DNA from: Lachnospiraceae bacterium
GTDB lineage: Bacteria; Bacillota; Clostridia; Lachnospirales; Lachnospiraceae
DNA: 64,000 nucleotides
Direction of reading: 5' to 3'
Assembly: GCA_045126515.1 (NCBI GenBank)
Contig: JBGVOM010000216.1
Location: forward strand, 2,187 to 66,186
Below the pieces are notes generated by a model, which ran no database searches, was not told where the DNA came from, and saw only the letters and a list, made by a program, of their open reading frames with translations. A program made the position numbers and the translations under genes. This document shows positions 21,553 through 46,180 of this stretch, piece by piece (position 1 is the stretch's first letter; each line of letters begins with the position of its first letter).

Positions 21553-22707
21553 TTAAGAAGAACTGTTGTTCAAAGAATAAATTTGTTTTAATAATTCGCT
21601 ACATTGCTTTTGCAGGTCAGCGTTTTCACTTTTTAAGTTAGTATTTTCATTTTGCAGGTCGGTGTTTTTGCTCTGCAGGTCGGTGTTTTTGCTCTGCAGG
21701 TCGGTGTTTTTGCTCTGTAGGTCAGTGTTTTTGCTCTGCAGGTCAGTGTTTTTGCTCTGCAAATCAGCGTTTTCGTTTTGCAATGTAGTCTTCTGGTTTT
21801 TTAGGTTTTCCAGTTCTTCGTTCATTTCATCCATCATAAATTTTACAGTATTTTGGTCTAAAATACGTAGTTCTTCTGAAAAAATGCTCATTATTTTCTC
21901 CATATTCTGACATAAATTATAAATTTCCTGATACATAGGTTTGAACTTTGGATAATGCTCAATCAGATAGATAATATCATCTAAATCATCGGAACTTAAA
22001 AAAGTAAGCCAGGCATCCTGTTCATTTCTAATACCATTATTTTGACGAATAATTTTGAATATGTCAAGGGGAATAAAAAGATACTTTTGTAAAAGATTTA
22101 ATTCAATTCCCGTGTTAGATTTGGGTTCTACATAATGCAGATATTCTTGGGGGAATTGGTGAAATTCCTTTGGAGCTTTATCGAATAAAACGATGGTGTA
22201 GACTTGTTTGATATCACTGTATTTAAAGCGTTCTTTTTTCTCATCGCGAACTCTTTTATATTGTCGAAGCAATAAATCAGCGGAATAGCAGGCACTTCGT
22301 TCACCAGGAAATTTATATCCGATTTTTTGCATTTCGATATTTATGATGCTACCGTCTTCTAATTGGACTACAATATCCATAATTACCAGGGAGCTTTCAT
22401 CTCCTAATCTTGTGGAATCCGTTGGAAGTACAAAAAGAATTTTCACTTTGACTCCCAGTAAGACAGATAAAAAATCATTTAATCGTTCTGGTGCGTATTC
22501 CGGGCTAAGAATTTCTTTGAAAAATCCATCATATATCATTTTTACCCCTTTTGCACCGGAACAAAAATTTAGAAATTCTTCTTGCTGTTCAAGCTTCCAA
22601 GAATAAAACGTTGTACATAGCGCTGCACTGTTTTGGATTTCTTGTAAAATATCCCGTTTTTCCCTAATTATGGGAAAATACTGTTGTAGTGTATTTGCCA
22701 TAGGCAT
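21553..22707 (-). CDS. Rpn/YhgA-like PD-(D/E)XK nuclease-family (putative transposase-like) protein with C-terminal heptad-repeat coiled coil
   Basis: The N-terminal roughly 250 aa follow the Rpn pattern (DGFFKEIL, IVVQLEDGSIINIEMQ, VYTIVLFD). The C-terminus is (NTDLQSK)n, encoded by 21-bp tandem repeats. Confidence 0.6.
   Translation of the reverse strand: MPMANTLQQYFPIIREKRDILQEIQNSAALCTTFYSWKLEQQEEFLNFCSGAKGVKMIYDGFFKEILSPEYAPERLNDFLSVLLGVKVKILFVLPTDSTRLGDESSLVIMDIVVQLEDGSIINIEMQKIGYKFPGERSACYSADLLLRQYKRVRDEKKERFKYSDIKQVYTIVLFDKAPKEFHQFPQEYLHYVEPKSNTGIELNLLQKYLFIPLDIFKIIRQNNGIRNEQDAWLTFLSSDDLDDIIYLIEHYPKFKPMYQEIYNLCQNMEKIMSIFSEELRILDQNTVKFMMDEMNEELENLKNQKTTLQNENADLQSKNTDLQSKNTDLQSKNTDLQSKNTDLQSKNTDLQNENTNLKSENADLQKQCSELLKQIYSLNNSSS
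21606..21795. repeat. ~9 tandem copies of 21-bp unit (ctgcaggtcggtgtttttgct), 5 near-identical, in-frame within the Rpn-like CDS
   Basis: Read directly. It encodes LQSKNTD heptads. Confidence 0.85.
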
Positions 22708-26427: not shown

Positions 26428-26681
26428 GGTATTGGGAGTGAGTGCACAAATTGCTGTGGCTGGGCAACACGGCTGCGGGGGATAAGAATTTCTAAGGTAT
26501 CCCTAAGCTACGAGGCTGGTACCGGACGTAACCGGGACACATTCGCCATCCGTGGCTCAGGTGTCCCTTTCCCGGACATCCCTGTCCGGGAATTACTGAT
26601 TTTCCAAGGGATACCAAGAAATTCTAATCCCCCTCCGCAGTGTCACCCAGCCACAGCAATTTGTGCACCCGATCCAATAAA
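26428..26681. repeat. Palindromic non-coding element L: ~46-bp terminal inverted repeats + inner IR pair flanking an 80-bp multi-hairpin core
   Basis: 26436-26481 is the reverse complement of 26629-26674. 26482-26504 pairs with 26606-26628. The core is 26519-26598. Confidence 0.8.
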
Positions 26682-26774: not shown

Positions 26775-27030
26775 ATACCGTTCCGAGCATATGGCACAAA
26801 GGATTGGGGCTGTGAGGGTCTGTGGAGATAGGTTAGAACTTCTTGGTATCCTTTCTCAACAAACAGTAATTCCCGGACAGGACGTCCGGGAAAGGGACAC
26901 CTGAGCCATGGATGGCGAATGTGTCCCGGTTACGTCCGGTACCAACTTCTTCCCAAAGGGATACCTTAGAAGTTCTTACCTATCGTAACCGACTCTCACA
27001 GTCCCAATCCTTTGTGCCATATGCCCCCAA
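26775..27030. repeat. Palindromic non-coding element R: same architecture, different outer arms, same core in opposite orientation
   Basis: 26788-26834 is the reverse complement of 26984-27030. Core 26866-26944 is the reverse complement of the L core with about 3 mismatches. Confidence 0.8.
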
Positions 27031-28895: not shown

Positions 28896-29825
28896 ATGAA
28901 AATAATAATGGCAAAACCGTATAAATCATATGACGATTTACTTACATTTCTGCAGAATGACAAAAACCTCATTATCGAAGATATGGACAATGCTAGACAC
29001 ATTCTGACCAAAACCAGTTATTTCTCCCTTATTTCCGGCTATAAAGATATGTTCAAAAACCAAACTACCGGAAACTATATAGACGGCACTACATTTGATG
29101 ATATTTATCGCCTATACCGCTTTGATTACGAACTGCGCAGCCTTTTCTTAAAGTATATGCTTATCGCTGAACGAAGCGTAAAATCCTCTCTTGCATACCA
29201 CTTTTCAGCTACATACGGCGACTTTCAGAAAGAATATGCATCTTTTTCCCATTATGCGGTTACGCCTGCAAACAAAGGGGACATCCAGAAACTTCTTAAT
29301 ATTTTTCGTTACCAGCTAACCCATAATAAAGACCATGCCTATATTAACCACTACAAGTCAAAACATCGTAATGTCCCTCTGTGGATTATGGTGCAGGTGT
29401 TGACAATAGGACAGGTTTCCCATATGTTTGATTATCTGAACGCCTCTGTTCCCATTAAAGTCTGCAATGACTTTCACCAAGTTACCCGAAAGGATATGCA
29501 CTCTTTTCTTTCTGTCATGACAAAGCACAGGAATGTATGTGCCCATGGAGAACGTTTTTTCAATTATGTAACAAAAGACAGTATTACCGACACACTCATC
29601 CATAAAAAATTGCACATTTCACAAATAAACGGACGTTTTCAAAGTGGGAAAAATGATATCTTTTCCGAGGTAATCATCCTGAAATATCTTCTGGATACAG
29701 AAGATTTCCGGAATTTTTATTATGAGTTAAGACATTGCCTGAAAAAGCAAAATCCCAGAAAAGATATATTAGAGATGATGGGCTTTCCCGAAAACTGGAT
29801 GTCAATCATGCGTCTCAAAATCTGA
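28896..29825 (+). CDS. Abi_2-family abortive infection protein (AbiD/AbiF-like)
   Basis: 309 aa. Sequence pattern and length are typical of Abi_2 (AbiD1/AbiF): YDDLLTFLQ, YRFDYELRSLFLKYMLIAERSVKSSLAYHF, NVPLWIMVQVLTIGQVSHMFDYL. Confidence 0.7.
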   Translation: MKIIMAKPYKSYDDLLTFLQNDKNLIIEDMDNARHILTKTSYFSLISGYKDMFKNQTTGNYIDGTTFDDIYRLYRFDYELRSLFLKYMLIAERSVKSSLAYHFSATYGDFQKEYASFSHYAVTPANKGDIQKLLNIFRYQLTHNKDHAYINHYKSKHRNVPLWIMVQVLTIGQVSHMFDYLNASVPIKVCNDFHQVTRKDMHSFLSVMTKHRNVCAHGERFFNYVTKDSITDTLIHKKLHISQINGRFQSGKNDIFSEVIILKYLLDTEDFRNFYYELRHCLKKQNPRKDILEMMGFPENWMSIMRLKI

Positions 29826-30200
29826 TAATCTGCAAAGGAAGAAACATCTTGATTTGTGAAGGGTATATGTCCTTTTGGTTTTGCTTTCGTTTATTTTTCA
29901 TATCTCAAAGCTCTCTTATTTTTGTTAATGCTAATGTTATTGACCGGCTTCAAAACATTCTTCAGTCAGCATTCTCCCCGTTTCAAATATTTCTCAAAGT
30001 TAAATCCCATGCAGTCGATACTTTTTCCGCAAGTACGCTTCCAAAAGTTGCTACCCCAAAAAAGTTTGCGATTTCATCAAAAATTGATAAGATGTTGCGA
30101 TTTTTGCATAAATGTTTGCTAATCAACCTTGACATTTTTACATTTCTAACTTAAATTATAATATATGAATGTAGGCACATTTAAGGGAGGTGGTGTTCAA

Positions 30201-30413
30201 TTGAAAATCAGTTACAAAAAGCTCTGGATATTACTGATTGAAAAGGACATTACACCTGTGACACTTCGTAAAGACTTAAATATTGCAACAGGCACTATGA
30301 CAAAACTGAGGAAGAATGAAGAGGTTGCTTTATCCGTATTATTAAGGATTTGCGAGTACCTTAATTGTAATATTGGAGATATTTGTGATGCTGTGAAAGA
30401 TGACAATGCTTAA
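30201..30413 (+). CDS. Small XRE-family HTH regulator
   Basis: TTG 30201 follows GGGAGG with 10-nt spacing. HTH segment VTLRKDLNIATGTMTKLRKNE. Confidence 0.55.
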   Translation: MKISYKKLWILLIEKDITPVTLRKDLNIATGTMTKLRKNEEVALSVLLRICEYLNCNIGDICDAVKDDNA

Positions 30414-30443
30414 AATTATACTTTCAAACGGAGGAATACTGTA

Positions 30444-31292
30444 ATGGACAATGAAAATGCTAATCGAATAATTAGATTCTGCCCTTATTGCGGAAAAAAT
30501 TTAGATATTGGTGCGAGATTTTGCAAAGAATGTGGACAAGCAATTAGCATGACAAATCCCCAACAATCAGTACCAACTAATAGTTTTGCACAAACACAAT
30601 CAGGTAATCCAACTGAAAGAAAAACGGTTTACGAAGGATATATACATAAATGCCCTAATTGTGGTGAAGTCTTAGAAGCGTTTGTCACACATTGTCCTTC
30701 GTGCGGATATGAAATTCGTGATACCCATTCTTCAAGTTCTGTTAGAGAATTTGCTGCAAAACTCGAAAGAATTGAAGCGAAACAAATGCCTGCTTTTGAG
30801 CAAAAGAAATCTGTAATGAAAATGGTATTTGGGAAGGATTTCCAAAATAAAGACGAAGCAGAGGAAGCAAGGGATGATTTTGAAGAGCAGAAAGAACAGG
30901 AAAAAGCGACACTTATTATAAACTATTCAGTTCCTAATACAAAAGAGGATATATTAGAATTTATGATTTTGGCAGCATCTAATATCAATGTGAAAAAAGG
31001 AATAGATGATGAGGTTACTAAAGCGTGGATTACAAAATTAGAACAGGTATATCAACGTGCTGAAATCTCTATGGGAAGTAACCCTGATTTTTTGCAAATC
31101 AAGAGCATTTATGACCGTAAGAAGAAAGAAATTAAGGATAAGAAGCATAAGACAACCATTGGTGTTGTCGGTGGAATTGCAGGTTGGTTTTTTCTATTAG
31201 GGTTGCTCTGGAATCCTGTAGCGACGATTGGGATAGCGGTTGGCATAATTGTTTTGATTGTTATAGGGTTTGTCCTATTTAAGCGTAAATAA
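30444..31292 (+). CDS. Double zinc-ribbon protein with C-terminal TM anchor
   Basis: Two CxxCG...CxxCG zinc ribbons (FCPYCG..CKECG and CPNCG..CPSCG), a coiled or acidic middle, and two C-terminal TM helices. Confidence 0.5.
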   Translation: MDNENANRIIRFCPYCGKNLDIGARFCKECGQAISMTNPQQSVPTNSFAQTQSGNPTERKTVYEGYIHKCPNCGEVLEAFVTHCPSCGYEIRDTHSSSSVREFAAKLERIEAKQMPAFEQKKSVMKMVFGKDFQNKDEAEEARDDFEEQKEQEKATLIINYSVPNTKEDILEFMILAASNINVKKGIDDEVTKAWITKLEQVYQRAEISMGSNPDFLQIKSIYDRKKKEIKDKKHKTTIGVVGGIAGWFFLLGLLWNPVATIGIAVGIIVLIVIGFVLFKRK

Positions 31293-31313
31293 ACTATAAG
31301 GGAGGAAAAACAA

Positions 31314-32687
31314 ATGGCTTTCTTTGATAGAAATGATAAAACAGGCGGCTTTATGGATGAAATCCGTTGCGATGAGCCTTCATATCTGATATGGAAGTGG
31401 CATCCTTCTGGTTCCCAACTTGGAGAGAATAACAGAGAAAATGCTATACGCTGGGGTTCATCATTAAGAGTTAAGGATGGAGAAGTTGCGGTTTTTGTTT
31501 ACAAACAACAAAATGGAATAATGCAAGATTTCATTGAAGGTCCCTATGACCAAATCATTAAAACAGAGAACTTCCCAATACTTGCAAGTATTGTAGGATT
31601 GGCTTATGAGGGTGGCACTCCTTTTCAGGCAGAGGTTTATTTTATCAATCTTGCCCAGATTATTCAAACAAAATTTGCTGTTCCGTTCTTTGATGTATAT
31701 GATCCAAGATTTGCAGACTTTGGTGTTCCTCTTGCTGTCAGGGGTACTATCAGCTTTAAAATTGAAGATTACAGAGAATTTATTAAACTGCATCGGCTAA
31801 ACACCTTTAATCTTGCAGATTTTCAAACGCAAATTCGTGATGCTGTAAGCAGATATGTGAAAGACACTGTTGCTAATGCTCCTGCAGCTCACAACATTCC
31901 TTTGATACAGATTGAAACAAAGGTATCTCAAATCAACGATGTTATTGAACTTGACCTTGGAGAAAGATTGAGGGAAACCTTTGGAGTCGAAATTTCCGGT
32001 GTTGATGTTGGTGCTATTGAACTTGACAAATCAAGTGAGGGATATCACTCACTTATGAGTGTGACAAAAGATATTGCTGCAGCAACCGCAAAGGCAGAAT
32101 CCGAAGCACGAATTAAGGATATTGCCGCCAAACAGCGTATTGAAGCAGAGAACTACGAGGAAACTCTGCGTATTCAGAGAGAAGAAGGTCAATATGCTCA
32201 ACATAAGCAAACACAATCGTCTAACATTGGTGCTTTCCAAGTTGAAAAGCAAGCAGAAGTTGGTGTTGCAGGAGCTGAAGCATTGGGACAGATGGGGGCT
32301 AATGGTGCTGGTGATATAAATCTCGGCAGTGGCGGAGACGGCTTTAATATGGCGGCAATGATGGCAAGTATGGCTGTTGGCGGTGCGGTCGGGCAAAACA
32401 TTGCCGGTTCTATGAATAATATGATGCAGGGCATCAATCAACCTGTCCAGACAGACATTACACCTCCACCGATTCCAACGTCGGCTTATAATGTAGCGGT
32501 CAACGGTCAGGCAACCGGACCATTTGATATTAGCATATTGAAGCAAATGGCTATTGCCGGACAATTCAAGGCAAGCAGCTTGGTGTGGAAGTCAGGAATG
32601 GAAACTTGGTTAAGGGCGGACTCTGTCGATGAATTAAAGGATTTGTTCAAAAATGTAATGCCGCCAATCCCAACGACAGAAGAATAA
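31314..32687 (+). CDS. SPFH/band-7-like protein (COG4260 'virion core protein-like') with C-terminal DUF4339/GYF-like domain
   Basis: The N-terminal roughly 250 aa resemble COG4260 SPFH proteins (assignment from memory, unverified). Then a Gly/Ala/Met-rich linker. The C-terminus is GPFDISILKQMAIAGQFKASSLVWKSGMETWLRADSV. Confidence 0.5.
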   Translation: MAFFDRNDKTGGFMDEIRCDEPSYLIWKWHPSGSQLGENNRENAIRWGSSLRVKDGEVAVFVYKQQNGIMQDFIEGPYDQIIKTENFPILASIVGLAYEGGTPFQAEVYFINLAQIIQTKFAVPFFDVYDPRFADFGVPLAVRGTISFKIEDYREFIKLHRLNTFNLADFQTQIRDAVSRYVKDTVANAPAAHNIPLIQIETKVSQINDVIELDLGERLRETFGVEISGVDVGAIELDKSSEGYHSLMSVTKDIAAATAKAESEARIKDIAAKQRIEAENYEETLRIQREEGQYAQHKQTQSSNIGAFQVEKQAEVGVAGAEALGQMGANGAGDINLGSGGDGFNMAAMMASMAVGGAVGQNIAGSMNNMMQGINQPVQTDITPPPIPTSAYNVAVNGQATGPFDISILKQMAIAGQFKASSLVWKSGMETWLRADSVDELKDLFKNVMPPIPTTEE

Positions 32688-32703
32688 CGAGGAGGAATGA
32701 ATT

Positions 32704-34740
32704 ATGAAGTGTCTTAAATGTGGTGCTGAATTAAGCGAAGATACGAAATTTTGCTCTTATTGTGGAGCTAAAGTGGAAGCACAAACTGAAATACCACCGA
32801 TTCCGCCTGAAGCTGAAAAAGCGGAAGAACCTAAAATGGAAGAAAAATATTCTTATCAAAATAATACGATTAATACTACTTCTCTCACTTCAAAACCGAC
32901 AAGCAATGCTGATAAGATTAAAACTAAATTTCTTGGCATTTGGAACAAATTAAGCAAATTCGGAAAAATTGCAGCAATCGGTATTACGGTATTTGTGATT
33001 CTAGGGCTTGTGGCTTTCCTTGCAGGCAGAATTTTTGCAGGTATTCTTGCTGTCGTACAAATTGCTATCGTGATAGTTGCAATATTGATGAAAAAGCAGA
33101 TTATCAAAGTTCCTAGGACTTGGATACCATTGGTGCCTATTGTGTTGTCTTTCGTGCTCATAGTTCCGTATTTTGGCTTGTTTAAGGTGAATATGGCTGA
33201 CTACGAAAAATATGCGTGGAATGAAGTTGTGCTTGCCGATATGCTTCCTAAGCCTAAATCTCCTTATGGCGAAATCATTTCAAATTCAGAAGATTATCTG
33301 TCTTTAGACGTAACAAAAACAAGTGAAGAGCAATATGGTAAATACATAGAAGACTGCAAAAACAAAGGTTTTACGATTGATGCTGAAACAACGGGAAGCT
33401 TTTTCTGTGCTTACAATGATAAAGGGTATAAATTGTCACTAAGCTATTATGACAATAAAATGCATATTGGTCTTGATGCCGCTATGGAGTTAGGTACGCT
33501 TACTTGGTCTGACAGTGAAATGGCGAAATTACTTCCTGTTCCTAAATCAACCATTGGAAATATTCGGCAAGATGATGAAAAAGGCTTCGTTGCTTATATT
33601 GGTGAAACAACCATTGATGAATATAATGCCTATGTGGAAGCTTGTGAAGATAAGGGATTTACTGTTGACGCTAACAAAACAGAAAAACTATATTCAGCTA
33701 AGAATGAAGATGCCTATAAACTTTCGGTTGAGTATAAGGGAAACAATATGATTTACATTTCAGTTGATGAACCGGAATTTGATGTGAGCATTGAAATTGA
33801 GTGTGTTGAAAATTTAATTTTCAGCAAATATGATGTTGAAACATATATTGATGGTGATCATAAAGGAACTATTTCTCATGGTGATAAAGAAAAATATTCT
33901 GAAGTATTGACAAAAGGAAAGCATACAATTAGTTTTCAGAGTGCCGAAGACGATACTCTTGATGGAGAAATTGAAGTTGATATTTCAAAGAGCGAAACAC
34001 TAAAATTGAAGATTTCCTGTTCAAGTTCCGGTATTAACATTGATCTAATTGCAGGCACAACAAATGACAATCCGGAAGAAAATAAATCAACTGAAACTGA
34101 AGATTCAACAATCGTTGTAACTATGAGCGAAGATGATTTCATAGGTATGCACTATACCGATGCAGAAGCGAAACTTCGAGAAATGGGTTTCGCAGTGTTT
34201 GAATATGAAACCCTTGAAACCGAAGATATTAACGAACCTGATGATACAATTGGTGCGGTCGAGATAAAAAATTGGGAGTTTGGTAAGGGTGATTTTGCTG
34301 TTGGCGATACCTATGAAACAGATGCTATTGTTGTTTTGTGGTATTATGTTTGCGATGAACCAGAACCAAATCTGACAGTAGACAACTGTCCAGAACTTGT
34401 AGCAATATTGGCTAATAAAGCAGAAATAGATGAATCTTATTCTTCTTTTGCTACTAAGTATAATGGTAGAATCATTGAGTTCGATGGTAGAATAGATTAC
34501 TGCACAAAACACGGAAATTGTAATACAAGATTTGATTATCTTGTGAGTGCAGGCGATTATGACCCTGACCATCAAATAGGTCCGACATTCAAATTTGAAG
34601 ATGTAAATTATTCTGATTTGAATACTGATTTGGAAACTGTAAGCGTTGGTTTGAATGTTCATATTGTAGCAGAGGTAAAATCATTTGATAGCAACAGTGG
34701 ACTTTTCTATTTGGAGCCAATTGCAGTAACAAAAAGATAA
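32704..34740 (+). CDS. Zinc-ribbon membrane protein with large extracytoplasmic repeat domain
   Basis: N-terminal zinc ribbon CLKCGA..CSYCGA, two TM helices, two internal modules of about 75 aa each (…CKNKGFTIDAETTG… / …CEDKGFTVDANKTE…), and a PASTA-like segment. Confidence 0.5.
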   Translation: MKCLKCGAELSEDTKFCSYCGAKVEAQTEIPPIPPEAEKAEEPKMEEKYSYQNNTINTTSLTSKPTSNADKIKTKFLGIWNKLSKFGKIAAIGITVFVILGLVAFLAGRIFAGILAVVQIAIVIVAILMKKQIIKVPRTWIPLVPIVLSFVLIVPYFGLFKVNMADYEKYAWNEVVLADMLPKPKSPYGEIISNSEDYLSLDVTKTSEEQYGKYIEDCKNKGFTIDAETTGSFFCAYNDKGYKLSLSYYDNKMHIGLDAAMELGTLTWSDSEMAKLLPVPKSTIGNIRQDDEKGFVAYIGETTIDEYNAYVEACEDKGFTVDANKTEKLYSAKNEDAYKLSVEYKGNNMIYISVDEPEFDVSIEIECVENLIFSKYDVETYIDGDHKGTISHGDKEKYSEVLTKGKHTISFQSAEDDTLDGEIEVDISKSETLKLKISCSSSGINIDLIAGTTNDNPEENKSTETEDSTIVVTMSEDDFIGMHYTDAEAKLREMGFAVFEYETLETEDINEPDDTIGAVEIKNWEFGKGDFAVGDTYETDAIVVLWYYVCDEPEPNLTVDNCPELVAILANKAEIDESYSSFATKYNGRIIEFDGRIDYCTKHGNCNTRFDYLVSAGDYDPDHQIGPTFKFEDVNYSDLNTDLETVSVGLNVHIVAEVKSFDSNSGLFYLEPIAVTKR

Positions 34741-34955
34741 ATCGAAAATGGTTGATAACAGCATTTCAGGTAAGAATAAGATGATATAGGACACTGAGGT
34801 TGAATACCTGCCCTCATTGCAACGAAAGTATAACAGACACTATTTGATTCAGTAGCATTGCTAAGGACTGCGTAACAGAGGTCTGTGATTACGAATGTTC
34901 AGAATGCGGTGAATGTAGCAATTTGAATGTTAATCTATATTAAGGAGTGAACACT

Positions 34956-35186
34956 ATGGAATATTGTATTGATTGCGGTGCAGAAATGAAGTATATCGGA
35001 AACAGAGAATGGGAATGTACCAAGTGCCACACCATTTACGAAATCGAAGGTATCGATTATGATGATGAAGACGAAGATGGTGAGAGATTGAGTGTATACG
35101 ACGCAGCACCAATTTGGGCATCACATGGTAAGGATGAGGATTATATGTTCGGTTATACTGAAGAAGAACTCGAAGACGCACTTTAA
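34956..35186 (+). CDS. Small acidic zinc-ribbon protein
   Basis: 76 aa. Strong RBS TAAGGAG. CIDCG...CTKC. Very acidic, with a DYDDEDEDGE run. Confidence 0.45.
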   Translation: MEYCIDCGAEMKYIGNREWECTKCHTIYEIEGIDYDDEDEDGERLSVYDAAPIWASHGKDEDYMFGYTEEELEDAL

Positions 35187-35200
35187 GGAGGAATGAACAA

Positions 35201-35410
35201 ATGGCAGGTTTAAAAGGTTGGAAAAAAGCATTGAAAGATGCAGTTGATTATCCGTGGGACAGTGATATTGATTCGGATCATCCCGAATGTCCCAACTGCG
35301 GCAACATAATGGATTTTAATGGTCACGATGATATGGGGGATTTCGCTTTTGGTGAAGGCTACTGGGAATGTGGCAGTTGTGGCTTCAAAGTAACTGAGAA
35401 CGATCTGTAA
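35201..35410 (+). CDS. Small acidic zinc-ribbon protein
   Basis: 69 aa. RBS TAAGGAGG. CPNCG...CGSCG. Confidence 0.45.
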   Translation: MAGLKGWKKALKDAVDYPWDSDIDSDHPECPNCGNIMDFNGHDDMGDFAFGEGYWECGSCGFKVTENDL

Positions 35411-35451: not shown

Positions 35452-35493
35452 CAAAAACTCCTTACTTCCCGGTGTGGTGGTAAGGAGTTTTTA
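35452..35493. terminator. Rho-independent terminator (aactccttac / gtaaggagtt, 14-nt loop, U-rich tail)
   Basis: Read directly. Confidence 0.6.
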
Positions 35494-35570: not shown

Positions 35571-36221
35571 CTAATAATATCCCCTTGCTTCCCTCCATCC
35601 CCTCACATAACATCTGATTCCAACATAGACTGCCTGCACGAGTAACAGAATAAGCAGGATATTTAACGGCAGTATCGTCTTTATCCATTTTCCAAAGAAA
35701 ATCACAGCCACAATACTTGCCAGCGTCACCATTATAGTAAGTATGTCCATGCAGTTCCTCTTGTAAAGCCTGGCAATCTTTATTCCCGCAAAAACCGCCA
35801 ATGCTCCGGTACCTGCCGCACAGCCGCCGGCAATCAGTATCATTGTCAGCCAATACACAATTCCTGCAATGGCGGTATTTGAGATTCTGTTACTAATCTG
35901 TGCAGCCGCTTTCCCTGCATGGATAACCCATCCTGAAGCCATCTGCAAAAATCCCCATGATTTATTGAGGAATATCCTGCAATCAGAAATAAATGCTTCC
36001 GACTGCACCGCCTGAAAGATGGTGGTTGTAAGAGAGTACCATACTAGCAGGAACATTGTGGTTCCATACCTGGCAGTTTTTGCCTTGTACCTGCCTGCAA
36101 GTTTTTCCCTCTGCCTTTCGTACTTATCCTTCGCTTTCTGGCAGGCTGTTTGGTTACAGATTCTACATTTTTCATAGAGTACCGGCTTTTCAACCGGTAC
36201 CTCTACTTTCTTCTGGTGCAT
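35571..36221 (-). CDS. Hypothetical membrane protein with N-terminal Cys cluster
   Basis: 216 aa. CRICNQTAC near the N-terminus and four clear TM helices. The RBS is weak. Confidence 0.45.
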   Translation of the reverse strand: MHQKKVEVPVEKPVLYEKCRICNQTACQKAKDKYERQREKLAGRYKAKTARYGTTMFLLVWYSLTTTIFQAVQSEAFISDCRIFLNKSWGFLQMASGWVIHAGKAAAQISNRISNTAIAGIVYWLTMILIAGGCAAGTGALAVFAGIKIARLYKRNCMDILTIMVTLASIVAVIFFGKWIKTILPLNILLILLLVQAVYVGIRCYVRGWREARGYY

Positions 36222-36250: not shown

Positions 36251-38011
36251 ATTGGAACGAAAGCGGTGATTCGAAGAAAAAATGGAACTTCGTTTCGAGA
36301 GTTTGCCTTATTTGTTCATGACTTTGCCCTTTTGTTTGACAGAGAAGGCAATGCTTTAAATCCGCCGAAGGTTCCGGGTTCTCATGACGATCCGGGTGTT
36401 ATGGGAATCAATTATCGCTGTGAACCTATGAGAGAAAGGCTAAAATGTCACAAGGATGCAGCCTATGTATTTAGTTCCATTATCCATGGGGATCCTGCCA
36501 CACCGATATTAGAAACTTATCCGGGAGATGAAATCATCATACGTCTTTTAGACGGCGCCCATGAAGAACAGCATTGTTTCAATATTACAGGTATGTCCTG
36601 GCGAAAAGAGATTGCTGACATTCACTCACCAATGACAGCCTCTCAAACCATCGGAATTTCAGAAGTCTTTAATGTAAGAATCGAAGAAGGATATGGTCCC
36701 GGGGATTATCTGTATTATTATGGCGGTATTGATGACGTATGGCTTGGTCTGTGGGGAATTATCCGGGTTTATGGTAAAGTGTGCAAAAAGTTGAAACCAT
36801 TGTGTAAACCTACGAATCAGATTTTCCCTTTACCTCCATGTCCGGGAAAGGGTGCGGTAATCAGAAAATATGAAATTGCGGCAATTCAGACAAAGATTCA
36901 ATACAATAAGCATGGAGACCATGATCCCAATGGACTGGTGTTTGTTCCGGTAGAAGACGTGGCGTTGGTACTTTCCGGAAAGAAAAATCCAAAACCATTA
37001 ATTCTACGTGCCAACGCAGGGGATTGGATAGAGGTGACACTGCACAACATGTTTTCCAAAAAGGAGCCTATTCCTTATTTTGATTATCCGAAAGTACCGC
37101 TGGATATGGAATATCAGCCTTCAGAGAGAGTTTCCTTAAATCCCCAGTTTTTGCAGTATGATAATCTGTGTGATTCAGGAATTAATGTAGGATATAACAA
37201 TAAAGAACAGACGGTGGGACCGGGGGAAAGCAAAAAATACCTGTGGTATGCGGATAAAGAATATGGTGCTTGCAATGTGCAGTCCTTTGGTGATTTGAGA
37301 AATCACAGGTATCACGGATTGTTTGGAGCTATCATTATAGAACCGGTGGGAGCAAAATGGTATGGTGATACATGGATGAAAGAAAATATTTATGAGGAGC
37401 AGGCAGTGATAGAAGCATCGGGTGTGGAGACTTTCCGGGAATTTGTAGTCCTGATACAAAATGGTATCCGCCTTCTGGATGAAAATGGAGAGTTGATTCA
37501 AACAACAGCGACAGAGCCTGGAGAGGAACCGGATGCAGAGGACACCGGGGAGAAGGAATATAATTACCGTTCTGAGCGGTTTGCTAACCGGTTAAAAAGA
37601 AATTCCGCAATTTCACAGGTATTTAGCAGCAGGGTACATGGAGATCCGGCAACGCCTGTGTTTAAAGCATATTCCGGGGAACGTGTTATTTTCAGAACCC
37701 TGATGCCTGCAGATAAGCCAAGAAATGTTAGTTTTGCAGTTCATGGGCATCAATGGAAAGAGCAACCGGAGGACTATTATTCCAGACGAATTCCCCTACA
37801 GGGAGCTGTCAGCATAGGAAACAAATTTGATATAGAATTAGAAGACGGCGCCTCCTGTCCGGGAGATTATCTGTATCGTTCGGGAAGTTTAAAGTGGGAT
37901 GTGGAATCCGGCATGTGGGGAATTTTCAGGGTGATGAAGGAAAGCCTGAAGTGTAAGTGTGTGAATAAGTGCAGGAAGATGGCTTGCTGTTGGGGGAAGA
38001 GAGGGAAGTAG
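36251..38011 (+). CDS. Multicopper-oxidase-like (cupredoxin-fold) protein with degenerate metal ligands; no canonical start, probably 5'-truncated remnant
   Basis: Two internal repeats end in GDYLYYYGG...WGIIRVY and GDYLYRSGS...ESGMWGIFRV. These sit where MCOs have W.YHCH...GM..F. No in-frame ATG/GTG/TTG follows the AAGGAG at 36239; only ATT at 36251 is available. Upstream in-frame sequence back to 36056 is low-complexity and overlaps the minus-strand gene. Confidence 0.35.
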   Translation: MGTKAVIRRKNGTSFREFALFVHDFALLFDREGNALNPPKVPGSHDDPGVMGINYRCEPMRERLKCHKDAAYVFSSIIHGDPATPILETYPGDEIIIRLLDGAHEEQHCFNITGMSWRKEIADIHSPMTASQTIGISEVFNVRIEEGYGPGDYLYYYGGIDDVWLGLWGIIRVYGKVCKKLKPLCKPTNQIFPLPPCPGKGAVIRKYEIAAIQTKIQYNKHGDHDPNGLVFVPVEDVALVLSGKKNPKPLILRANAGDWIEVTLHNMFSKKEPIPYFDYPKVPLDMEYQPSERVSLNPQFLQYDNLCDSGINVGYNNKEQTVGPGESKKYLWYADKEYGACNVQSFGDLRNHRYHGLFGAIIIEPVGAKWYGDTWMKENIYEEQAVIEASGVETFREFVVLIQNGIRLLDENGELIQTTATEPGEEPDAEDTGEKEYNYRSERFANRLKRNSAISQVFSSRVHGDPATPVFKAYSGERVIFRTLMPADKPRNVSFAVHGHQWKEQPEDYYSRRIPLQGAVSIGNKFDIELEDGASCPGDYLYRSGSLKWDVESGMWGIFRVMKESLKCKCVNKCRKMACCWGKRGK

Positions 38012-38262: not shown

Positions 38263-38300
38263 CAATATTATAATAACATATATTCATAGGTAAATGCAAG
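38263..38300 (-). promoter_or_regulatory. tracrRNA promoter TTGCAT-18-TATTAT(AAT)
   Basis: The reverse complement of 38267-38300 reads cttgcatttacctatgaatatatgttattataat. The predicted start falls at the anti-repeat. Confidence 0.5.
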
Positions 38301-38338
38301 AGAAAAAATCATACAGAGATAAGAATAGGGGGATAAAA

Positions 38339-41300
38339 ATGGGTAAAAAAATGTATGTGGGAATCGATATGGGAACAAATTCAGTGGGGATGGCAGTAAC
38401 GGATGAAACCTATAATTTGTATAGGGTAAAAGGGAAGGACTTTTGGTGTTCAAGAGTATTTGGAGAAGCTAATACTGCGGTTGAGAGAAGAACTAATCGA
38501 ATATCGAGAAGAAGACGGCAGAGGGAAATGGCTAGACAGGGTGTTTTACGTGAACTGTTTTCAGACGAAATAAATAAGGTGGACGAAGGATTTTTTTCAA
38601 GACTTGATGAGTCAAAGTACCATATGGAGGATAGGGATAATCAGCAACCATATGCTTTGTTTGCAGATAGTGGGTATACGGATAAAAATTATTTTAACGA
38701 TTATCCTACAATATTTCATTTACGTAATGAATTGCTTCATCCTAAAAGGGATGCATATGATGTGCGATTAGTATATTTGGCTATTGCAAATATGTTTAAG
38801 CATAGGGGAAACTTTCTGAATGAGACACTTGAGGTGGAAAAAATAACGTCTAGTGCAGAAGAGGTATATCAGCTTCTTGTAGAAGCGGCTATGATGTATT
38901 CTATAGAATTGCCGGTAAGTATAGACGCGGAAAAACTAGTGAATATCATTGGAGAAAAAGGTGTTTCTAGAAGTAAACACTTAGAAAATGTTAGCGAATA
39001 TCTTGGTGTGTCTAAAAAATGCAAGCAAGCATACGAGATACTAAAGATGGTTTGTGGTATGAGTGGAATCCTTTTTAATATATATGGTGAAGATGTAATT
39101 GATGAGGAAAACAAAAAGTTTAGTTTGAATTTTAGAGATAGTAACTATGAGGAGAAAGAAGCTCAAGCATTAGAATTTTTAGGTGATGATTATTTTGAGT
39201 TGTTAGAGGTGATAAAAGAGCTTCACGATATTGGTATGCTTTCAAGTATTATAAAGGGGCACAAATATCTTTCTGAGTCTAGAGTAGAGCTTTATGAGGA
39301 ACATAAGAAGGATCTTGATATGCTTCAAGGTGTTATGAAAAAGTATGATATGAAAGCCTATGATGAGATGTTCAGAGTTATGAAAGAGGGCAATTACAGT
39401 GCTTATGTAGGTAGCGTTAATGCACTTGGTAAAAAGATAAGAAGAAACGGAGGAAAGGGTAGGTCACAGGAAGATTTTTACAAAGGTGTAAAAGCGGCAC
39501 TCAAGAATTTCCCAGAGAATGATGAAGATGTAAAAGTTATACTAGCTAAGATAGAAAACGAAACATTTATGCCAAAACAGCTGACAGCTTCTAATGGTGT
39601 TATTCCGAATCAGTTACATGCATCTGAAATGAAAGCTATACTTACAAATGCGGAAAAGTACTTGCCTTTTTTACTTGATAAAGATGAATCAGGTCTTACT
39701 GTTTCTCAAAGGATAGTGGAGTTATTTACATTCCACATACCTTATTATGTTGGTCCAATAGGTGCTAGCGGCGATAATGTATGGGCAAGAAGAAGACCGG
39801 GAGAGGAAAAGGGAAAAGTCTATCCATGGAATTTCGAACAAAAAATAGACACGCAGGGTGCAGCAGAAGAATTTATAGGCAGAATGGTTAGGCATTGTAC
39901 ATATCTTACAGGTGAGCGTACATTGCCAAAGCAGTCACTTCTATATGAAAAGTTTATGGTGTTAAACGAATTAAATAATCTTAAAATAAATGGAGCAAAG
40001 CTAGAGGTATCTGTAAAACAGGGAATCTACGATAATCTTTTTAGAAATGGAAAAAAGGTTACGATAAATATGCTAAAAGCTTATTTATACAATAATTCTA
40101 TCATAGCATCAAAGGATGATATTGTAATTACTGGTATTGATGCTGGATTTAATGCGTCATTAACTTCAGTTGGCAAGTTTAGAGGAGTATTAGGAGATGA
40201 CCTGTTTACTGATGAAAATCAGGCAATGGTAGAAAAAATTATATTTTGGGGAACTGTGTATGGTAATGATAAGAAGTTCTTAAAAGAGAGAATAGAAACT
40301 GAGTATAAAGGAAGATTAACGATTGAACAGATAAAACGTATTGTCGGGTTCAAATTTAATGGTTGGGGAAAATTGTCTAAGACCTTTTTGGAGCTTCCTG
40401 GCAATTGCGAATGTGGTGAGTGTTCAATTATACAAGCACTTTGGGAAACAAACCATAATCTTATGGAGCTTTTATCGGAACAATATGGTTTTAAGAAAAA
40501 TCTGGATGCAATGTCAAATGATGTGGAAAAGCCACTTCGTGATTGGACAATAGAAGATTTGGATGGAAAATACTTATCTGCCCCTGTAAAGCGTATGATA
40601 TGGCAGACAATGAAGATGTTAAGAGAGGTTTGTGAATTAACAGGGAAAGAACCGGATAAAGTATTCGTTGAGATGCCGAGAGAACGTGAGAAAAATCCTA
40701 TACGTAAAGATTCTAGAAAGAAGAAATTGATTGAATTATATTCAGCGCTTAAGAGTGAACAAAAGTCATGGGCTGAGCTAAAGATAAGAGAAATTGAAGG
40801 AAAGAGTGAGGCAGACTTTAGAATAAAGAAGTTGTATCTATATTATTTACAACAAGGGAAGTGTATGTATAGTGGTGAAAAAATAGAATTGAGTGACCTT
40901 GTTAATAATAACCTTTATGATATAGACCATATATATCCAAGACACTTTATAAAAGACGACAGTATGGAGAATAATCTGGTGCTTGTGAAAAAGGAAATTA
41001 ATAATCACAAAAGTGATACTTTTCCATTAGAAAAAGGTATACAGAGGAATATGGCAGGATTCTGGAAAACATTATGTGAACGAGGATTTATTACAAAAGA
41101 AAAGTATAACAGACTGACGCGTACGGAAGCCTTTACTGACGAAGAAAAAGCTGCGTTTATTAGCAGACAGTTAGTAGAGACGCGGCAGGGAACGAAAGCT
41201 ATAACGCAGGTTTTGAAACAAGCGTTTCCGAACACACAGGTTATATTTGTAAAGGCTGGTATTGTGAGTGATTTTAGAAAGAAATTCGAAATAAACAAGG

Positions 41301-42445
41301 TAAGAGCATTGAATGATACTCATCATGCAAAAGATGCATACCTGAATATAGTTGTGGGAAATACATATTATACGAAGTTTACCAGTAATCCAATCAATTT
41401 TATAAAAGATGCAACAAAGAATCCTAAGGACGATTTCTTTAAGTACAATATGGATAAAATATTTGATTATAATGTAAGCAGAAATGGGGAAAATGCATGG
41501 GTGGCTGATAATGGAATATCAAAGAAACAGGTTCTTAGCGTGGTCAATAGAAATACTGTGACAATAACCAGAAAGACAGAAGAGTATCATGGTGCATTGT
41601 CTAATAAAGCGACAGTTTGGGGGAAAGATAAAGCTAAGGGAAATCCAGAGGCTTATATGCCAGTTAAATCCAAGGATGCTAAGGCTCAGGACGTTACAAA
41701 GTATGGAGGTATTACATCAATAGCAAATTCTGGATATACACTTATAGAGTACACAATTAAAGGAAAGAAAGTAAGAAGTCTGGAGGCTTTACCTGTATAT
41801 TTGGGAAAAAGTAATACTCTGACAAAGGAGAAAATCTTAGTTTATATGTCAGAGGCTCTTCGTAAGGAGTATGTGGGTAAAGAGGTCTCAGATTTAAGAG
41901 TATGTGTACCATTTATTCCTCAAAAGTCAAAGGTTAGGATAGACGGCTTTGATTACTATTTGGGTGGAAAAACAGGAAATTCTATTTATTTAAATAATGA
42001 TGTGCCACTTTATCTATCATATGGTGATGAAGAATACTTGAGAAAGATAATAAAAGCGATAGAAAAAGCGAATTATGAAGAAAGGGATAAGGGGGGCAAT
42101 GTGATTATTACAAAAGAAAAGAATAATGCACTTTTTAAGACGTTAGAATTAAAGCTTAATAGTAAGCCGTATAATAATAACAGATGGAATATATATAAGA
42201 CGATGGAAGGAAAAGAAGATGTATTCAAAGAGTTAGATATTGAGGAACAGTGTTTTGTTATAAATCAGATTATATATTGGATTAATTCGACTACTCAGAA
42301 TGTTAATCTGAAGAATTTGAAAGGTAGTGAGCATGCAGGAACATTGGTTTTGAATAAAAAAATATCAGAGTGTAATGAATTTACTCTTATTCATCAGTCG
42401 ATAACAGGTATGTATGAAAGAAAAATAGACCTGTTAGCGATATGA
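38339..42445 (+). CDS. cas9: Cas9 (type II-A), 1368 aa
   Basis: RuvC-I MYVGIDMGTNSVGMAV. Arg-rich bridge helix RRTNRISRRRRQRE. HNH DIDHIYPRHF...NNHKSD. RuvC-III HHAKDAYL. ATG 38339 follows GGGGGAT. Confidence 0.95.
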   Translation: MGKKMYVGIDMGTNSVGMAVTDETYNLYRVKGKDFWCSRVFGEANTAVERRTNRISRRRRQREMARQGVLRELFSDEINKVDEGFFSRLDESKYHMEDRDNQQPYALFADSGYTDKNYFNDYPTIFHLRNELLHPKRDAYDVRLVYLAIANMFKHRGNFLNETLEVEKITSSAEEVYQLLVEAAMMYSIELPVSIDAEKLVNIIGEKGVSRSKHLENVSEYLGVSKKCKQAYEILKMVCGMSGILFNIYGEDVIDEENKKFSLNFRDSNYEEKEAQALEFLGDDYFELLEVIKELHDIGMLSSIIKGHKYLSESRVELYEEHKKDLDMLQGVMKKYDMKAYDEMFRVMKEGNYSAYVGSVNALGKKIRRNGGKGRSQEDFYKGVKAALKNFPENDEDVKVILAKIENETFMPKQLTASNGVIPNQLHASEMKAILTNAEKYLPFLLDKDESGLTVSQRIVELFTFHIPYYVGPIGASGDNVWARRRPGEEKGKVYPWNFEQKIDTQGAAEEFIGRMVRHCTYLTGERTLPKQSLLYEKFMVLNELNNLKINGAKLEVSVKQGIYDNLFRNGKKVTINMLKAYLYNNSIIASKDDIVITGIDAGFNASLTSVGKFRGVLGDDLFTDENQAMVEKIIFWGTVYGNDKKFLKERIETEYKGRLTIEQIKRIVGFKFNGWGKLSKTFLELPGNCECGECSIIQALWETNHNLMELLSEQYGFKKNLDAMSNDVEKPLRDWTIEDLDGKYLSAPVKRMIWQTMKMLREVCELTGKEPDKVFVEMPREREKNPIRKDSRKKKLIELYSALKSEQKSWAELKIREIEGKSEADFRIKKLYLYYLQQGKCMYSGEKIELSDLVNNNLYDIDHIYPRHFIKDDSMENNLVLVKKEINNHKSDTFPLEKGIQRNMAGFWKTLCERGFITKEKYNRLTRTEAFTDEEKAAFISRQLVETRQGTKAITQVLKQAFPNTQVIFVKAGIVSDFRKKFEINKVRALNDTHHAKDAYLNIVVGNTYYTKFTSNPINFIKDATKNPKDDFFKYNMDKIFDYNVSRNGENAWVADNGISKKQVLSVVNRNTVTITRKTEEYHGALSNKATVWGKDKAKGNPEAYMPVKSKDAKAQDVTKYGGITSIANSGYTLIEYTIKGKKVRSLEALPVYLGKSNTLTKEKILVYMSEALRKEYVGKEVSDLRVCVPFIPQKSKVRIDGFDYYLGGKTGNSIYLNNDVPLYLSYGDEEYLRKIIKAIEKANYEERDKGGNVIITKEKNNALFKTLELKLNSKPYNNNRWNIYKTMEGKEDVFKELDIEEQCFVINQIIYWINSTTQNVNLKNLKGSEHAGTLVLNKKISECNEFTLIHQSITGMYERKIDLLAI

Positions 42446-44427: not shown

Positions 44428-46180
44428 GTTTGAGAACCTTGTAAGTGAATAAAGGTGTAAAACATAATCGAACTTTTGTTTGATAAAATATGGGTTTGAG
44501 AACCTTGTAAGTGAATAAAGGTGTAAAACTTAAAGAAAAAACAAATGGAAAACAGAGCAGTTTGAGAACCTTGTAAGTGAATAAAGGTGTAAAACAAACA
44601 TCATATTTATAATGCCTATGCTGGGGTTTGAGAACCTTGTAAGTGAATAAAGGTGTAAAACATTCTTCCACTTTTAGGAAGATAAACTGTAGTTTGAGAA
44701 CCTTGTAAGTGAATAAAGGTGTAAAACTCACTGTTATTTCCAAAATTACACCCCTTTGTTTGAGAACCTTGTAAGTGAATAAAGGTGTAAAACAATATGT
44801 CAAAACGAAAACTAGAAGTATTTGTTTGAGAACCTTGTAAGTGAATAAAGGTGTAAAACATAAGTTAGATGTAGATAACTACGACTATTGTTTGAGAACC
44901 TTGTAAGTGAATAAAGGTGTAAAACATTTCAGATGAAGGAAACCCAGCGATAGTAGTTTGAGAACCTTGTAAGTGAATAAAGGTGTAAAACTTGTTGTGG
45001 CACGCTAATTGTTGGAATAGTGTTTGAGAACCTTGTAAGTGAATAAAGGTGTAAAACCAAAGGCATAATAAAAATTAGTTGCAATAAGTTTGAGAACCTT
45101 GTAAGTGAATAAAGGTGTAAAACGGCGGGGATTCTCCGAGGGGAAAACTTTTTGTTTGAGAACCTTGTAAGTGAATAAAGGTGTAAAACTCGCTATTAAA
45201 CCAACTAAAGCAGGCAATAGTTTGAGAACCTTGTAAGTGAATAAAGGTGTAAAACCTATCATACCGATATAATCGGGCAGGACATGTTTGAGAACCTTGT
45301 AAGTGAATAAAGGTGTAAAACTACCGAGAATAGAACAAATGTTTATATTTTGTTTGAGAACCTTGTAAGTGAATAAAGGTGTAAAACTAGCAGTAATGAC
45401 ACCAAAGGGCGGTGTAGGTTTGAGAACCTTGTAAGTGAATAAAGGTGTAAAACATTAACAGAATACGAACGACTAGAAGCATTGTTTGAGAACCTTGTAA
45501 GTGAATAAAGGTGTAAAACAATGTCAGAAGGAAGTAAACTTACTCTTCCGTTTGAGAACCTTGTAAGTGAATAAAGGTGTAAAACTATATCACATCCTTT
45601 CCGTTTTCTCCACTAGTTTGAGAACCTTGTAAGTGAATAAAGGTGTAAAACTTTGTTCAGATTTTGTGCAGATTCCTTGGGGTTTGAGAACCTTGTAAGT
45701 GAATAAAGGTGTAAAACGGTGACATTCTTCATTTGCTTCTTGCGACCAGTTTGAGAACCTTGTAAGTGAATAAAGGTGTAAAACTATACCACATTGTTTT
45801 ATAAATCAACATCAGTTTGAGAACCTTGTAAGTGAATAAAGGTGTAAAACTTCCATACCACTGGCATACCGTTCCATTGGTTTGAGAACCTTGTAAGTGA
45901 ATAAAGGTGTAAAACAAATACTATACAGGAATGAGCAACTACGCAGTTTGAGAACCTTGTAAGTGAATAAAGGTGTAAAACGAATTAGCAGCACTTAAAT
46001 GGGAAGATATAGTTTGAGAACCTTGTAAGTGAATAAAGGTGTAAAACATAGGGGGAAATGATATGATTAATAGATTTAGTTTGAGAACCTTGTAAGTGAA
46101 TAAAGGTGTAAAACACATTCGCTTATGGTTAGTGCTAATCGTGCGTTTGAGAACCTTGTAAGTGAATAGTAAGCGCCAAA
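44428..46180 (+). CRISPR. CRISPR array: 27 repeats (36 bp, GTTTGAGAACCTTGTAAGTGAATAAAGGTGTAAAAC), 26 spacers of 29-31 bp; last repeat degenerate at 3' end
   Basis: Counted directly. Repeats start at 44428, 44494, 44560 and so on, with mostly 66-bp period. The final copy at 46145 is GTTTGAGAACCTTGTAAGTGAATAgtaagcgccaaa. The leader is the 113 bp after csn2. Confidence 0.97.

Follow-up and report, generated by a model that had tools for sequence, protein, structure and literature searches.

SPFH proteins of the Band_7_1 subfamily have barely been studied. The studied example that we found is YdjI of Bacillus subtilis, a PspA-linked protein encoded in the locus pspA-ydjG-ydjH-ydjI (samGHI). Both the zinc-ribbon protein YdjG and YdjH are needed for YdjI to be present at the membrane, the deletion of either one abolishing its recruitment, and the recruitment of PspA and the appearance of PspA foci in turn require YdjI (Scholz et al. 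2021, PMC8581546). According to a preprint, SamG-SamH-SamI constitutes a stress-sensor complex with developmental effects for which PspA is not needed, and the loss of SamI leads to constitutive SamG-SamH stress signalling and to global transcriptional changes in a PspA-independent manner (Baur et al. 2026, bioRxiv 10.64898/2026.02.06.704340). Here we analysed six genes (g1 to g6) at positions 30201-35410 of a stretch of 64,000 nucleotides from a Lachnospiraceae bacterium (contig JBGVOM010000216.1), referred to as the window, and compared them with YdjI (P0122) and with the whole B. subtilis locus. The genes g1 to g4 form a so far uncharacterised module, composed of a regulator, an SPFH protein and zinc-ribbon membrane proteins, that seems related to the YdjG/YdjI membrane-stress module of Bacillus. 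An earlier reading of the window, made from the sequence only, had stated that SPFH proteins with zinc-ribbon partners have no assigned function, a statement that the YdjG/YdjH-YdjI work has left outdated.

Two further described systems serve as points of reference. The GYF domain of GltJ from Myxococcus xanthus binds a proline-rich sequence with micromolar affinity; a neighbouring zinc ribbon is present in approximately 44% of the GYF proteins of bacteria, and the proposal has been made that such zinc-ribbon/GYF pairs act as switch modules coupled to receptor-like transmembrane (TM) proteins (Attia et al. 2024, PMC11135422). For its part, the sigma-W-induced yqeZ-floA-yqfB of B. subtilis, which encodes the SPFH flotillin FloA, confers sublancin resistance, and PspA, also induced by sigma-W, contributes to nisin resistance (PMC8144471). 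A search of the literature on Band_7_1/GYF_2 and on DUF6591/DUF4839/DUF6040 gave nothing relevant beyond the papers on YdjI and GltJ, and the module is uncharacterised in Clostridia.

Organisation, conservation and regulation of the module

The genes of the cluster, with sizes in amino acids (aa) and isoelectric points (pI) where relevant, are as follows.

30201..30413, plus strand: g1, 70 aa, TTG start, HTH_26 (Cro/C1-type helix-turn-helix) regulator (Pfam E 4e-18)
30444..31292, plus strand: g2, 282 aa, tandem zinc-ribbon (DZR, E 8e-9) membrane protein
31314..32687, plus strand: g3, 457 aa, soluble SPFH protein with Band_7_1 (E 1e-21) and GYF_2 (E 2e-15)
32704..34740, plus strand: g4, 678 aa, accessory membrane protein with Zn_Ribbon_1, two DUF6591 copies and DUF4839
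34956..35186, plus strand: g5, 76 aa, acidic zinc-ribbon protein (pI 4.05) with two CxxC motifs
35201..35410, plus strand: g6, 69 aa, acidic zinc-ribbon protein (pI 4.12) with two CxxC motifs

All six open reading frames (ORFs) lie on the same strand, each with a canonical ribosome-binding site, and their Pfam domains, CxxC motifs, TM segments and pI values agree with the six co-directional genes that the sequence-only reading had described. The tight spacing that it had also reported was observed among g1 to g4 (gaps of 16-30 bp) and between g5 and g6, and not across all six genes, since g4 and g5 are separated by 215 bp.

The succession HTH_26, DZR and SPFH-GYF was found in one fixed order at about 36 distinct loci of other organisms, which is more than chance would produce. 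A scan of species-representative genomes (one per species) with g3 rendered 33 loci with full-length matches 58-91% identical, the hosts being Lachnospiraceae, Oscillospiraceae, Acutalibacteraceae, Ruminococcus, Saccharofermentans and one metagenome-assembled genome (MAG) of Bacilli. The core was defined by comparing the proteins of the window with the ORFs of every locus by BLAST. The HTH_26 protein is invariably encoded by the first gene of the module and is 76-90% identical to g1 in most loci, and the DZR membrane proteins, of which there are one to three per locus, are 25-68% identical and range from 153 to 785 aa. A g4-type gene follows g3 in about 14 of the 33 loci (roughly 40%), in most cases 6-33 bp away. 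In contrast, g5, g6, the AbiD gene and the DUF6040 gene that flank the module in the window were seen, among all loci compared, only in contigs identical to it. The six-gene module proposed earlier is thereby reduced to g1-g3, with g4 as a frequent companion. Judging by these comparisons, the conserved unit is a real one, consisting of g1-g3 with g4 optional, and it is widespread and mobile among gut Clostridia, with the make-up of a self-regulated operon.

Homologues of g3 form at least 8,000 clusters at 90% identity, the top matches being 80-93% identical, yet at 50% identity no more than 207 clusters pass E <= 1e-30, which indicates that the SPFH-GYF family is narrow, highly conserved and very abundant.

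Variation was concentrated in the membrane partners. Two copies of DUF6591, otherwise present on g4-type proteins, are fused to the C-terminus of a DZR protein at two loci, L021 (8481-9959) and L026 (8293-9987), and this presence on either the g4 or the DZR protein points to a domain shuffling that ties the ectodomain to the module. One DZR protein, whose gene lies downstream of that for the SPFH protein at locus L032 (5806-7374), carries a PASTA domain. A single Faecousia sp. MAG carries two copies of the module on separate contigs, one with two tandem DZR paralogues (L037) and the other with three (L039), the C-terminal region differing for each paralogue.

Regarding g5 and g6, an acidic ORF of 163 aa on a phage-like IMG/VR contig (L062, 5617-6108) resembles both proteins, its C-terminus sharing 83% identity with residues 42-76 of g5 and its N-terminal part 59% with residues 24-69 of g6, which contain the zinc ribbon. 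This ORF is flanked by DNA-polymerase-like and primase/helicase-like genes, as judged from the translations. On the basis of these matches, g5 and g6 are classed as phage- or mobile-element-type genes that adjoin the module by chance and not as members of it.

The regulator g1 scored 75 bits with a VanU-like model, under the cut-off of 150. When 28 non-identical regions upstream of g1 were aligned, the palindrome TCGCAA-N4-TTGCGA was common to them, the regions being otherwise unalignable except for the -35 (TTGACA) and -10 (TATAAT) elements that follow the palindrome, with TTGA and TATA.T conserved. In 27 loci the palindrome, with zero to two mismatches, is located 82-128 bp upstream of the g1 start, and all the copies with zero or one mismatch in the 838 kb of fetched DNA occupy this same position. 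Such confinement supports g1 as a dedicated regulator of the module's own promoter, and the HTH_26 protein is inferred to bind the palindrome. The sequence-only reading, which had already proposed a dedicated regulator, is borne out by the invariable first place of the HTH_26 gene and by the conserved site at its own promoter. The corresponding elements in the window are the following.

30066: second TTGCGA half-site, near the operator-like site
30085..30100, no strand assigned: operator-like site TGATAA-GATG-TTGCGA, with a perfect right arm and three mismatches in the left arm
30129..30164, plus strand: sigma-70-type promoter-like elements, TTGACA-17-TAAATT overlapping TTTACA-16-TAATAT

Comparison with YdjG/YdjI, GltJ and SPFH cages

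The g3 protein is composed of a Band_7_1 domain (residues 42-239), a long helix (242-315), a linker rich in Gly, Ala, Met and Asn (316-383) and a GYF_2 domain (394-441). Its assignment to this SPFH/Band 7 subfamily (PF13421, COG4260) is based on 77.8 bits, where the cut-off is 24 (E 1e-21), and that of GYF_2 on 56.7 bits, where it is 25.8 (E 2e-15). No TM or other hydrophobic segment and no CxxC motif was found in g3. Foldseek matched the GYF part, with a probability of 1.0, to the GYF domain of GltJ (7z3c) and to those of Smy2 and GIGYF, and a sequence profile retrieved 7z3c at E 1e-3 (hmmsearch). Short proline motifs flank this domain in g3, and another is present in g4.

32463..32477, plus strand: PPPIP motif, g3 residues 384-388, right before GYF_2
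32661..32672, plus strand: PPIP motif, g3 residues 450-453, at the extreme C-terminus
32791..32808, plus strand: proline-rich stretch IPPIPP, g4 residues 30-35, directly after the zinc ribbon; candidate GYF_2 ligand

These motifs recur in the homologues. PPP[IVL]P stands just before GYF_2 in most of the g3 proteins, [MI]PP[IV]P closes about 30 of them, and a proline-rich stretch such as IPPIPP or TPPPVV..IPPIP follows the zinc ribbon in 9-10 of 12 g4-type proteins.

The g2 protein has four CxxC motifs, corresponding to two zinc ribbons that lie on the cytoplasmic side, followed by a helical bundle at residues 98-235 and, at the C-terminus, by a TM hairpin at residues 237-281; its AlphaFold2 (AF2) model had a pLDDT (predicted local distance difference test) of 72. 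In g4, a single zinc ribbon and the proline-rich stretch precede about three TM segments, after which come the two DUF6591 copies (E 4e-53) and DUF4839 (E 1.5e-38). A PDB sequence search with g4 gave no match. Residues 556-678 of g4, that is, DUF4839, match phrog_29396, a phage protein family of unknown function (E 4e-37), and an ectodomain of this type therefore occurs in phage-encoded proteins too. Proteins of the TcaA/YvbJ type, which are implicated in glycopeptide susceptibility, consist of an N-terminal zinc ribbon, a TM segment and an ectodomain, an architecture shared in outline by g4 and the long DZR variants (cytoplasmic zinc ribbon, one or more TM segments and an extracytoplasmic domain). 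Membership of g2 or g4 in the TcaA family was rejected, as the NCBIfam TcaA model gave 20.8 bits against a cut-off of 550 and covered only the zinc ribbon of g2, and did not match g4.

Likeness to the B. subtilis system was observed for the scaffold and, in part, for the anchor. Like YdjI, g3 belongs to PF13421 (31% identity over 137 aa, E 1e-11), has a Gly/Met-rich linker and lacks a membrane anchor. For the g2 family, hhalign aligned the profile with YdjG at a probability of 94.8% (E 5e-8) over no more than 65 columns, which correspond to the tandem zinc ribbons, while the rest did not align; both proteins have cytoplasmic N-terminal zinc ribbons and a hydrophobic C-terminal tail that could anchor them. 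By analogy, the module probably works like the YdjG-YdjI part of the PspA-YdjGHI system. It is not a member of that system, because YdjH, PspA and the zinc ribbon with which YdjI ends were all missing, g3 ending instead in GYF_2 flanked by PPP[IV]P motifs. Moreover, pspA-ydjGHI is a fixed chromosomal stress operon regulated by sigma-W, whereas the module is found on mobile elements of gut Clostridia, has its own HTH_26 regulator and palindrome, and includes an extra partner with zinc ribbon, proline-rich stretch, TM segments and DUF6591. It would thus represent the logic of a scaffold and a zinc-ribbon anchor running without PspA, and what it adds to the YdjI system is the GYF/proline-motif interaction system, the swappable ectodomains, an operator of its own and its mobile spread in abundant gut Clostridia. 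As a compact unit of four genes it offers defined interfaces, namely the operator DNA, the GYF domain with its candidate PPPIP ligands, and the helical bundle of the DZR protein.

With GltJ, the module shares the GYF fold, zinc ribbons, flexible linkers, a place on the cytoplasmic side of membrane complexes and the coupling to receptor-like TM proteins. The arrangement is different, since GltJ has zinc ribbon and GYF on one chain and the module has GYF on g3 and the ribbons on g2 and g4; furthermore, GltJ controls a gliding-motility machine through MglA, MglB and AglZ, and no Mgl or Agl genes accompany the module. The likeness to SPFH cages (HflK/C, FloA/FloT with NfeD, prohibitin and erlin) resides in the SPFH domain followed by a long helix and in the fold comparison, where the top Foldseek matches of g3 were erlin, prohibitin, HflK/C and flotillin, at E values of only about 1e-3. 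The secondary structure of the AF2 model fits an SPFH domain plus helix 242-315, at a low confidence (pLDDT 53.6). Unlike these cage proteins, g3 lacks both a TM segment and a hairpin and falls in a different Pfam subfamily, Band_7_1; no NfeD domain was found in the module proteins or the annotated neighbours, and no FtsH-type client is encoded nearby.

Genomic neighbourhood

The neighbours of the module were highly diverse, with 122 Pfam families in 107 upstream ORFs and 102 in 95 downstream ORFs, and its surroundings extended from ribosomal-protein operons to integrative mobilisable elements. Hallmarks of mobile elements were present at 16 of the roughly 36 loci, with TnpV adjacent at nine, serine recombinases at five and tyrosine integrases at four. 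Relaxases (Mob_Pre, MobA), a primase and DUF6076 were also recurrent, and at three loci the module lies beside a tRNA-U5 methyltransferase gene. Housekeeping-only loci exist as well, such as L058, where the module is flanked by rplQ and alr, and L055, where chromosomal genes surround it. No copy of g3 was detected by tblastn among 72,556 plasmids (PLSDB), and a scan of IMG/VR with g3 gave no match, so that no copy was found on bona fide phage sequences. The single match in a phage collection, MT835670.1 (L055, 'UNVERIFIED: Bacteriophage sp.'), was rejected as evidence of phage carriage; it encodes a polysaccharide deacetylase, an FtsX permease, GHKL kinases and a GGDEF protein, and looks like a bacterial chromosomal fragment and not a phage. 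Exact-protein look-ups of the genes flanking the module in the window returned the same strain only, from which no empty site or boundary could be defined, and no direct repeats were found flanking the module.

None of the six proteins matched a family of PADLOC-DB v2.0 at E <= 0.01, as the nearby AbiD does, and PHROGs and NCBIfam rendered only generic zinc ribbons, except for the DUF4839 of g4 (phrog_29396). Up to four genes away from the module, 202 ORFs yielded 305 PADLOC family rows (219 + 86), with about 12-14 strong proteins, as opposed to 37 families and 3 strong ones in the 148 ORFs located five to nine genes away; these counts are at the family level, inflated by helicases that match many models and not controlled for the cargo regions of mobile elements. 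The strong near neighbours included retron I-B, DRT, AbiL, a type IV restriction enzyme, ThsA and several PDC candidates. Defence genes were about three times as frequent in the immediate neighbourhood of the module as farther away, but this concerned only a minority of loci, and among nine Pfam-annotated contexts three had defence genes within 5 kb and two had housekeeping genes only. The closest relative (L049) adjoins a retron-like reverse transcriptase with PRTase plus an nSTAND3 NTPase, and L051 adjoins an LmuB_C fragment. There is, then, a local association of the module with defence-type genes, as measured with a crude control. The order of g1-g3 was kept elsewhere, and the company of defence genes was a matter of the minority of loci; the position between an Abi_2 gene and CRISPR-Cas, true of the window, is not conserved, and both neighbours are specific to this strain. 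Consistently housekeeping contexts were not observed, the module tending to lie in variable, mobile-element and defence-rich DNA.

Proposed function and alternative explanations

We give about an even chance to the reading that the region is a mobile, self-regulated operon for envelope surveillance or membrane protection. In such an operon, the HTH_26 protein would bind the palindrome found upstream of the sigma-A-type promoter and so set the level of expression. As their architectures show, one or more C-terminal TM segments anchor the DZR protein in the membrane, with the zinc ribbons and the conserved helical bundle toward the cytoplasm, and the g4-type protein has its zinc ribbon and proline-rich stretch in the cytoplasm and DUF6591/DUF4839 outside. 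These anchors may recruit the soluble Band_7_1 protein to the membrane, as YdjG/YdjH do with YdjI, where it may oligomerise through its SPFH and long-helix regions in the manner of HflK/C, prohibitin and flotillin cages. GYF_2 would bind PPP[IV]P motifs, two of them flanking it and one on g4, with the cross-linking of protomers or the tethering of a receptor as the result; such binding is suggested by the conservation of the motifs and by the proline binding of the GltJ GYF domain. The variable ectodomains (none, DUF6591, PASTA and others) would tune which envelope perturbation is sensed, and the output would be a local stabilisation of the membrane or a signal that shields the host of the mobile element from attack on membrane or cell wall, the candidate threats being bacteriocins, cell-wall antibiotics and possibly phage. 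By analogy with what SPFH proteins and PspA do in B. subtilis under sigma-W control, the likeliest role seems to be protection when the membrane or the cell wall is attacked.

Several observations weigh against this interpretation. No tblastn match to PspA or to YdjH (TPM) was obtained in the window or in about 50 other fetched sequences, and neither a TPM domain nor PF04012 (PspA/IM30) appeared in the Pfam results of the annotated contexts, so that, in cis, the module lacks the partner known to act downstream of YdjI. The homology of g2 to YdjG is limited to the zinc ribbons, its middle domain being unrelated. The AF2 model of g3, based on an alignment of 23 sequences, had a pLDDT of 53.6, with about 80 for the GYF part; because of this value, the fold matches count as weak support and a cage architecture is hypothetical. 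The module contains no enzyme or obvious effector. Finally, the operator copy of the window is half-degenerate, unlike the perfect or near-perfect palindromes of most other loci, and its degenerate left arm suggests that regulation may be altered in this strain.

The same membrane architecture could instead belong to a dedicated anti-phage system, in which the zinc-ribbon membrane proteins would sense adsorption, injection or another envelope perturbation and the SPFH protein would block the infection or collapse the membrane. Such a system would fit the place of the window module between AbiD and a type II-A CRISPR-Cas locus, the retron-like and LmuB_C neighbours of L049 and L051, the excess of PADLOC rows in near over distal ORFs, and the mobile-element cargo situation with a membrane partner far more variable than the scaffold and sometimes present as two or three tandem paralogues. 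However, the module proteins match nothing in PADLOC, no nuclease, NTPase, protease or other recognised effector is encoded in the module, the single literature search made on SPFH and 'anti-phage' showed no SPFH-based defence system, and defence neighbours occur at a minority of loci, with L058 and L055 in purely housekeeping surroundings. The enrichment itself may reflect hitch-hiking in cargo regions and is swollen by the multi-model helicases. We regard a dedicated anti-phage system as a serious rival, about half as probable as the surveillance or protection operon. Since near neighbours carry far more PADLOC families than distal ones, a phage-defence role of the module is plausible but unproven. 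Its boldest version, a new class of mobile membrane-surveillance immunity in which interchangeable zinc-ribbon receptors would detect a phage or bacteriocin breach and a GYF-linked SPFH cage would respond protectively or abortively, is put forward tentatively, with one chance in a few of being right. If the module were defensive, it would be the first SPFH-based defence system and a mechanistically new membrane-based one.

The mobile surroundings could also mean that the module serves the element that carries it, through entry or surface exclusion of related elements or through membrane organisation for DNA transfer. The frequency of TnpV, recombinases, relaxases and primase beside it, the recurrent insertion next to the tRNA-U5 methyltransferase gene and the surface-exposed ectodomains of some variants agree with such a service, but the module also stands alone in the housekeeping contexts of L058 and L055, with no transfer genes within 8-10 kb, is associated with several unrelated element types and not with one backbone, was found on none of the plasmids, and has its own regulator and operator, as is typical of autonomous cargo; a role in the service of the element is accordingly improbable. 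Improbable to the same degree is a device used mainly for signalling, in which the SPFH protein would buffer the output of a sensor complex on the transcriptional or developmental state, as proposed for SamG-SamH-SamI. The constitutive, PspA-independent signalling reported after SamI loss (Baur et al. 2026), the proposal of zinc-ribbon/GYF switches (PMC11135422) and the variable ectodomains, PASTA among them, speak for it; on the other hand, no kinase, sigma or anti-sigma factor or second-messenger enzyme is encoded in the module, its sole DNA-binding protein is the small HTH_26 regulator with a conserved site at the module's own promoter, and YdjH, the counterpart of SamH, is absent. As for a chance juxtaposition of all six genes without functional link, the neighbours g5, g6, AbiD, DUF6040 and CRISPR-Cas are indeed not conserved, but g1-g3 share order, orientation, tight spacing and operator at about 36 loci of several families, and the DUF6591 ectodomain is fused to either partner. 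Chance is therefore ruled out for g1-g4 and holds only for g5 and g6, and for the cluster as a whole we consider it extremely improbable.

Other features of the window around the module are the following.

28896-29825, upstream of g1: AbiD/Abi_2 gene (PADLOC AbiD, E 5e-60)
35453..35492, between g6 and the DUF6040 gene: hairpin between an A-run and a T-run, read from the sequence
35571-36221, minus strand: DUF6040 gene, between the cluster and cas9
36266-38011, plus strand: multicopper-oxidase-like ORF of 581 aa, between the cluster and cas9
38294-42445: cas9, followed by cas1, cas2 and csn2 (type II-A CRISPR-Cas locus)
44428-46115, downstream of cas9-cas1-cas2-csn2: CRISPR array with about 26 copies of the 36-nt repeat GTTTGAGAACCTTGTAAGTGAATAAAGGTGTAAAAC

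The hairpin is a possible bidirectional terminator and did not appear in the output of the consensus scan. The 581-aa ORF gave no Pfam match above threshold; a longer frame of 651 aa, starting at 36056, gave a partial match to the NCBIfam model of MnxG, a manganese-oxidising multicopper oxidase, at E 2e-40, the score being far short of the cut-off. Direct repeats about 1,160 nt apart within the ORF suggest an internal duplication, and its longest version overlaps the DUF6040 gene on the opposite strand.

Farther upstream, two full-length TwoAYGGAY RNA motifs (RF01731) were detected at 26470-26640 (minus strand) and 26821-26990 (plus strand), scoring 118 and 119 bits (gathering score 43). The two are inverted relative to each other, with a 138-nt inverted repeat as their arms, and separate an ABC-transporter gene from the DUF4317 gene. 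Genes for surface proteins and purine biosynthesis surround a PDDEXK_2 transposase-like gene (E 1.5e-18) at 21553-22707 (minus strand), which precedes the cluster by about 8 kb.

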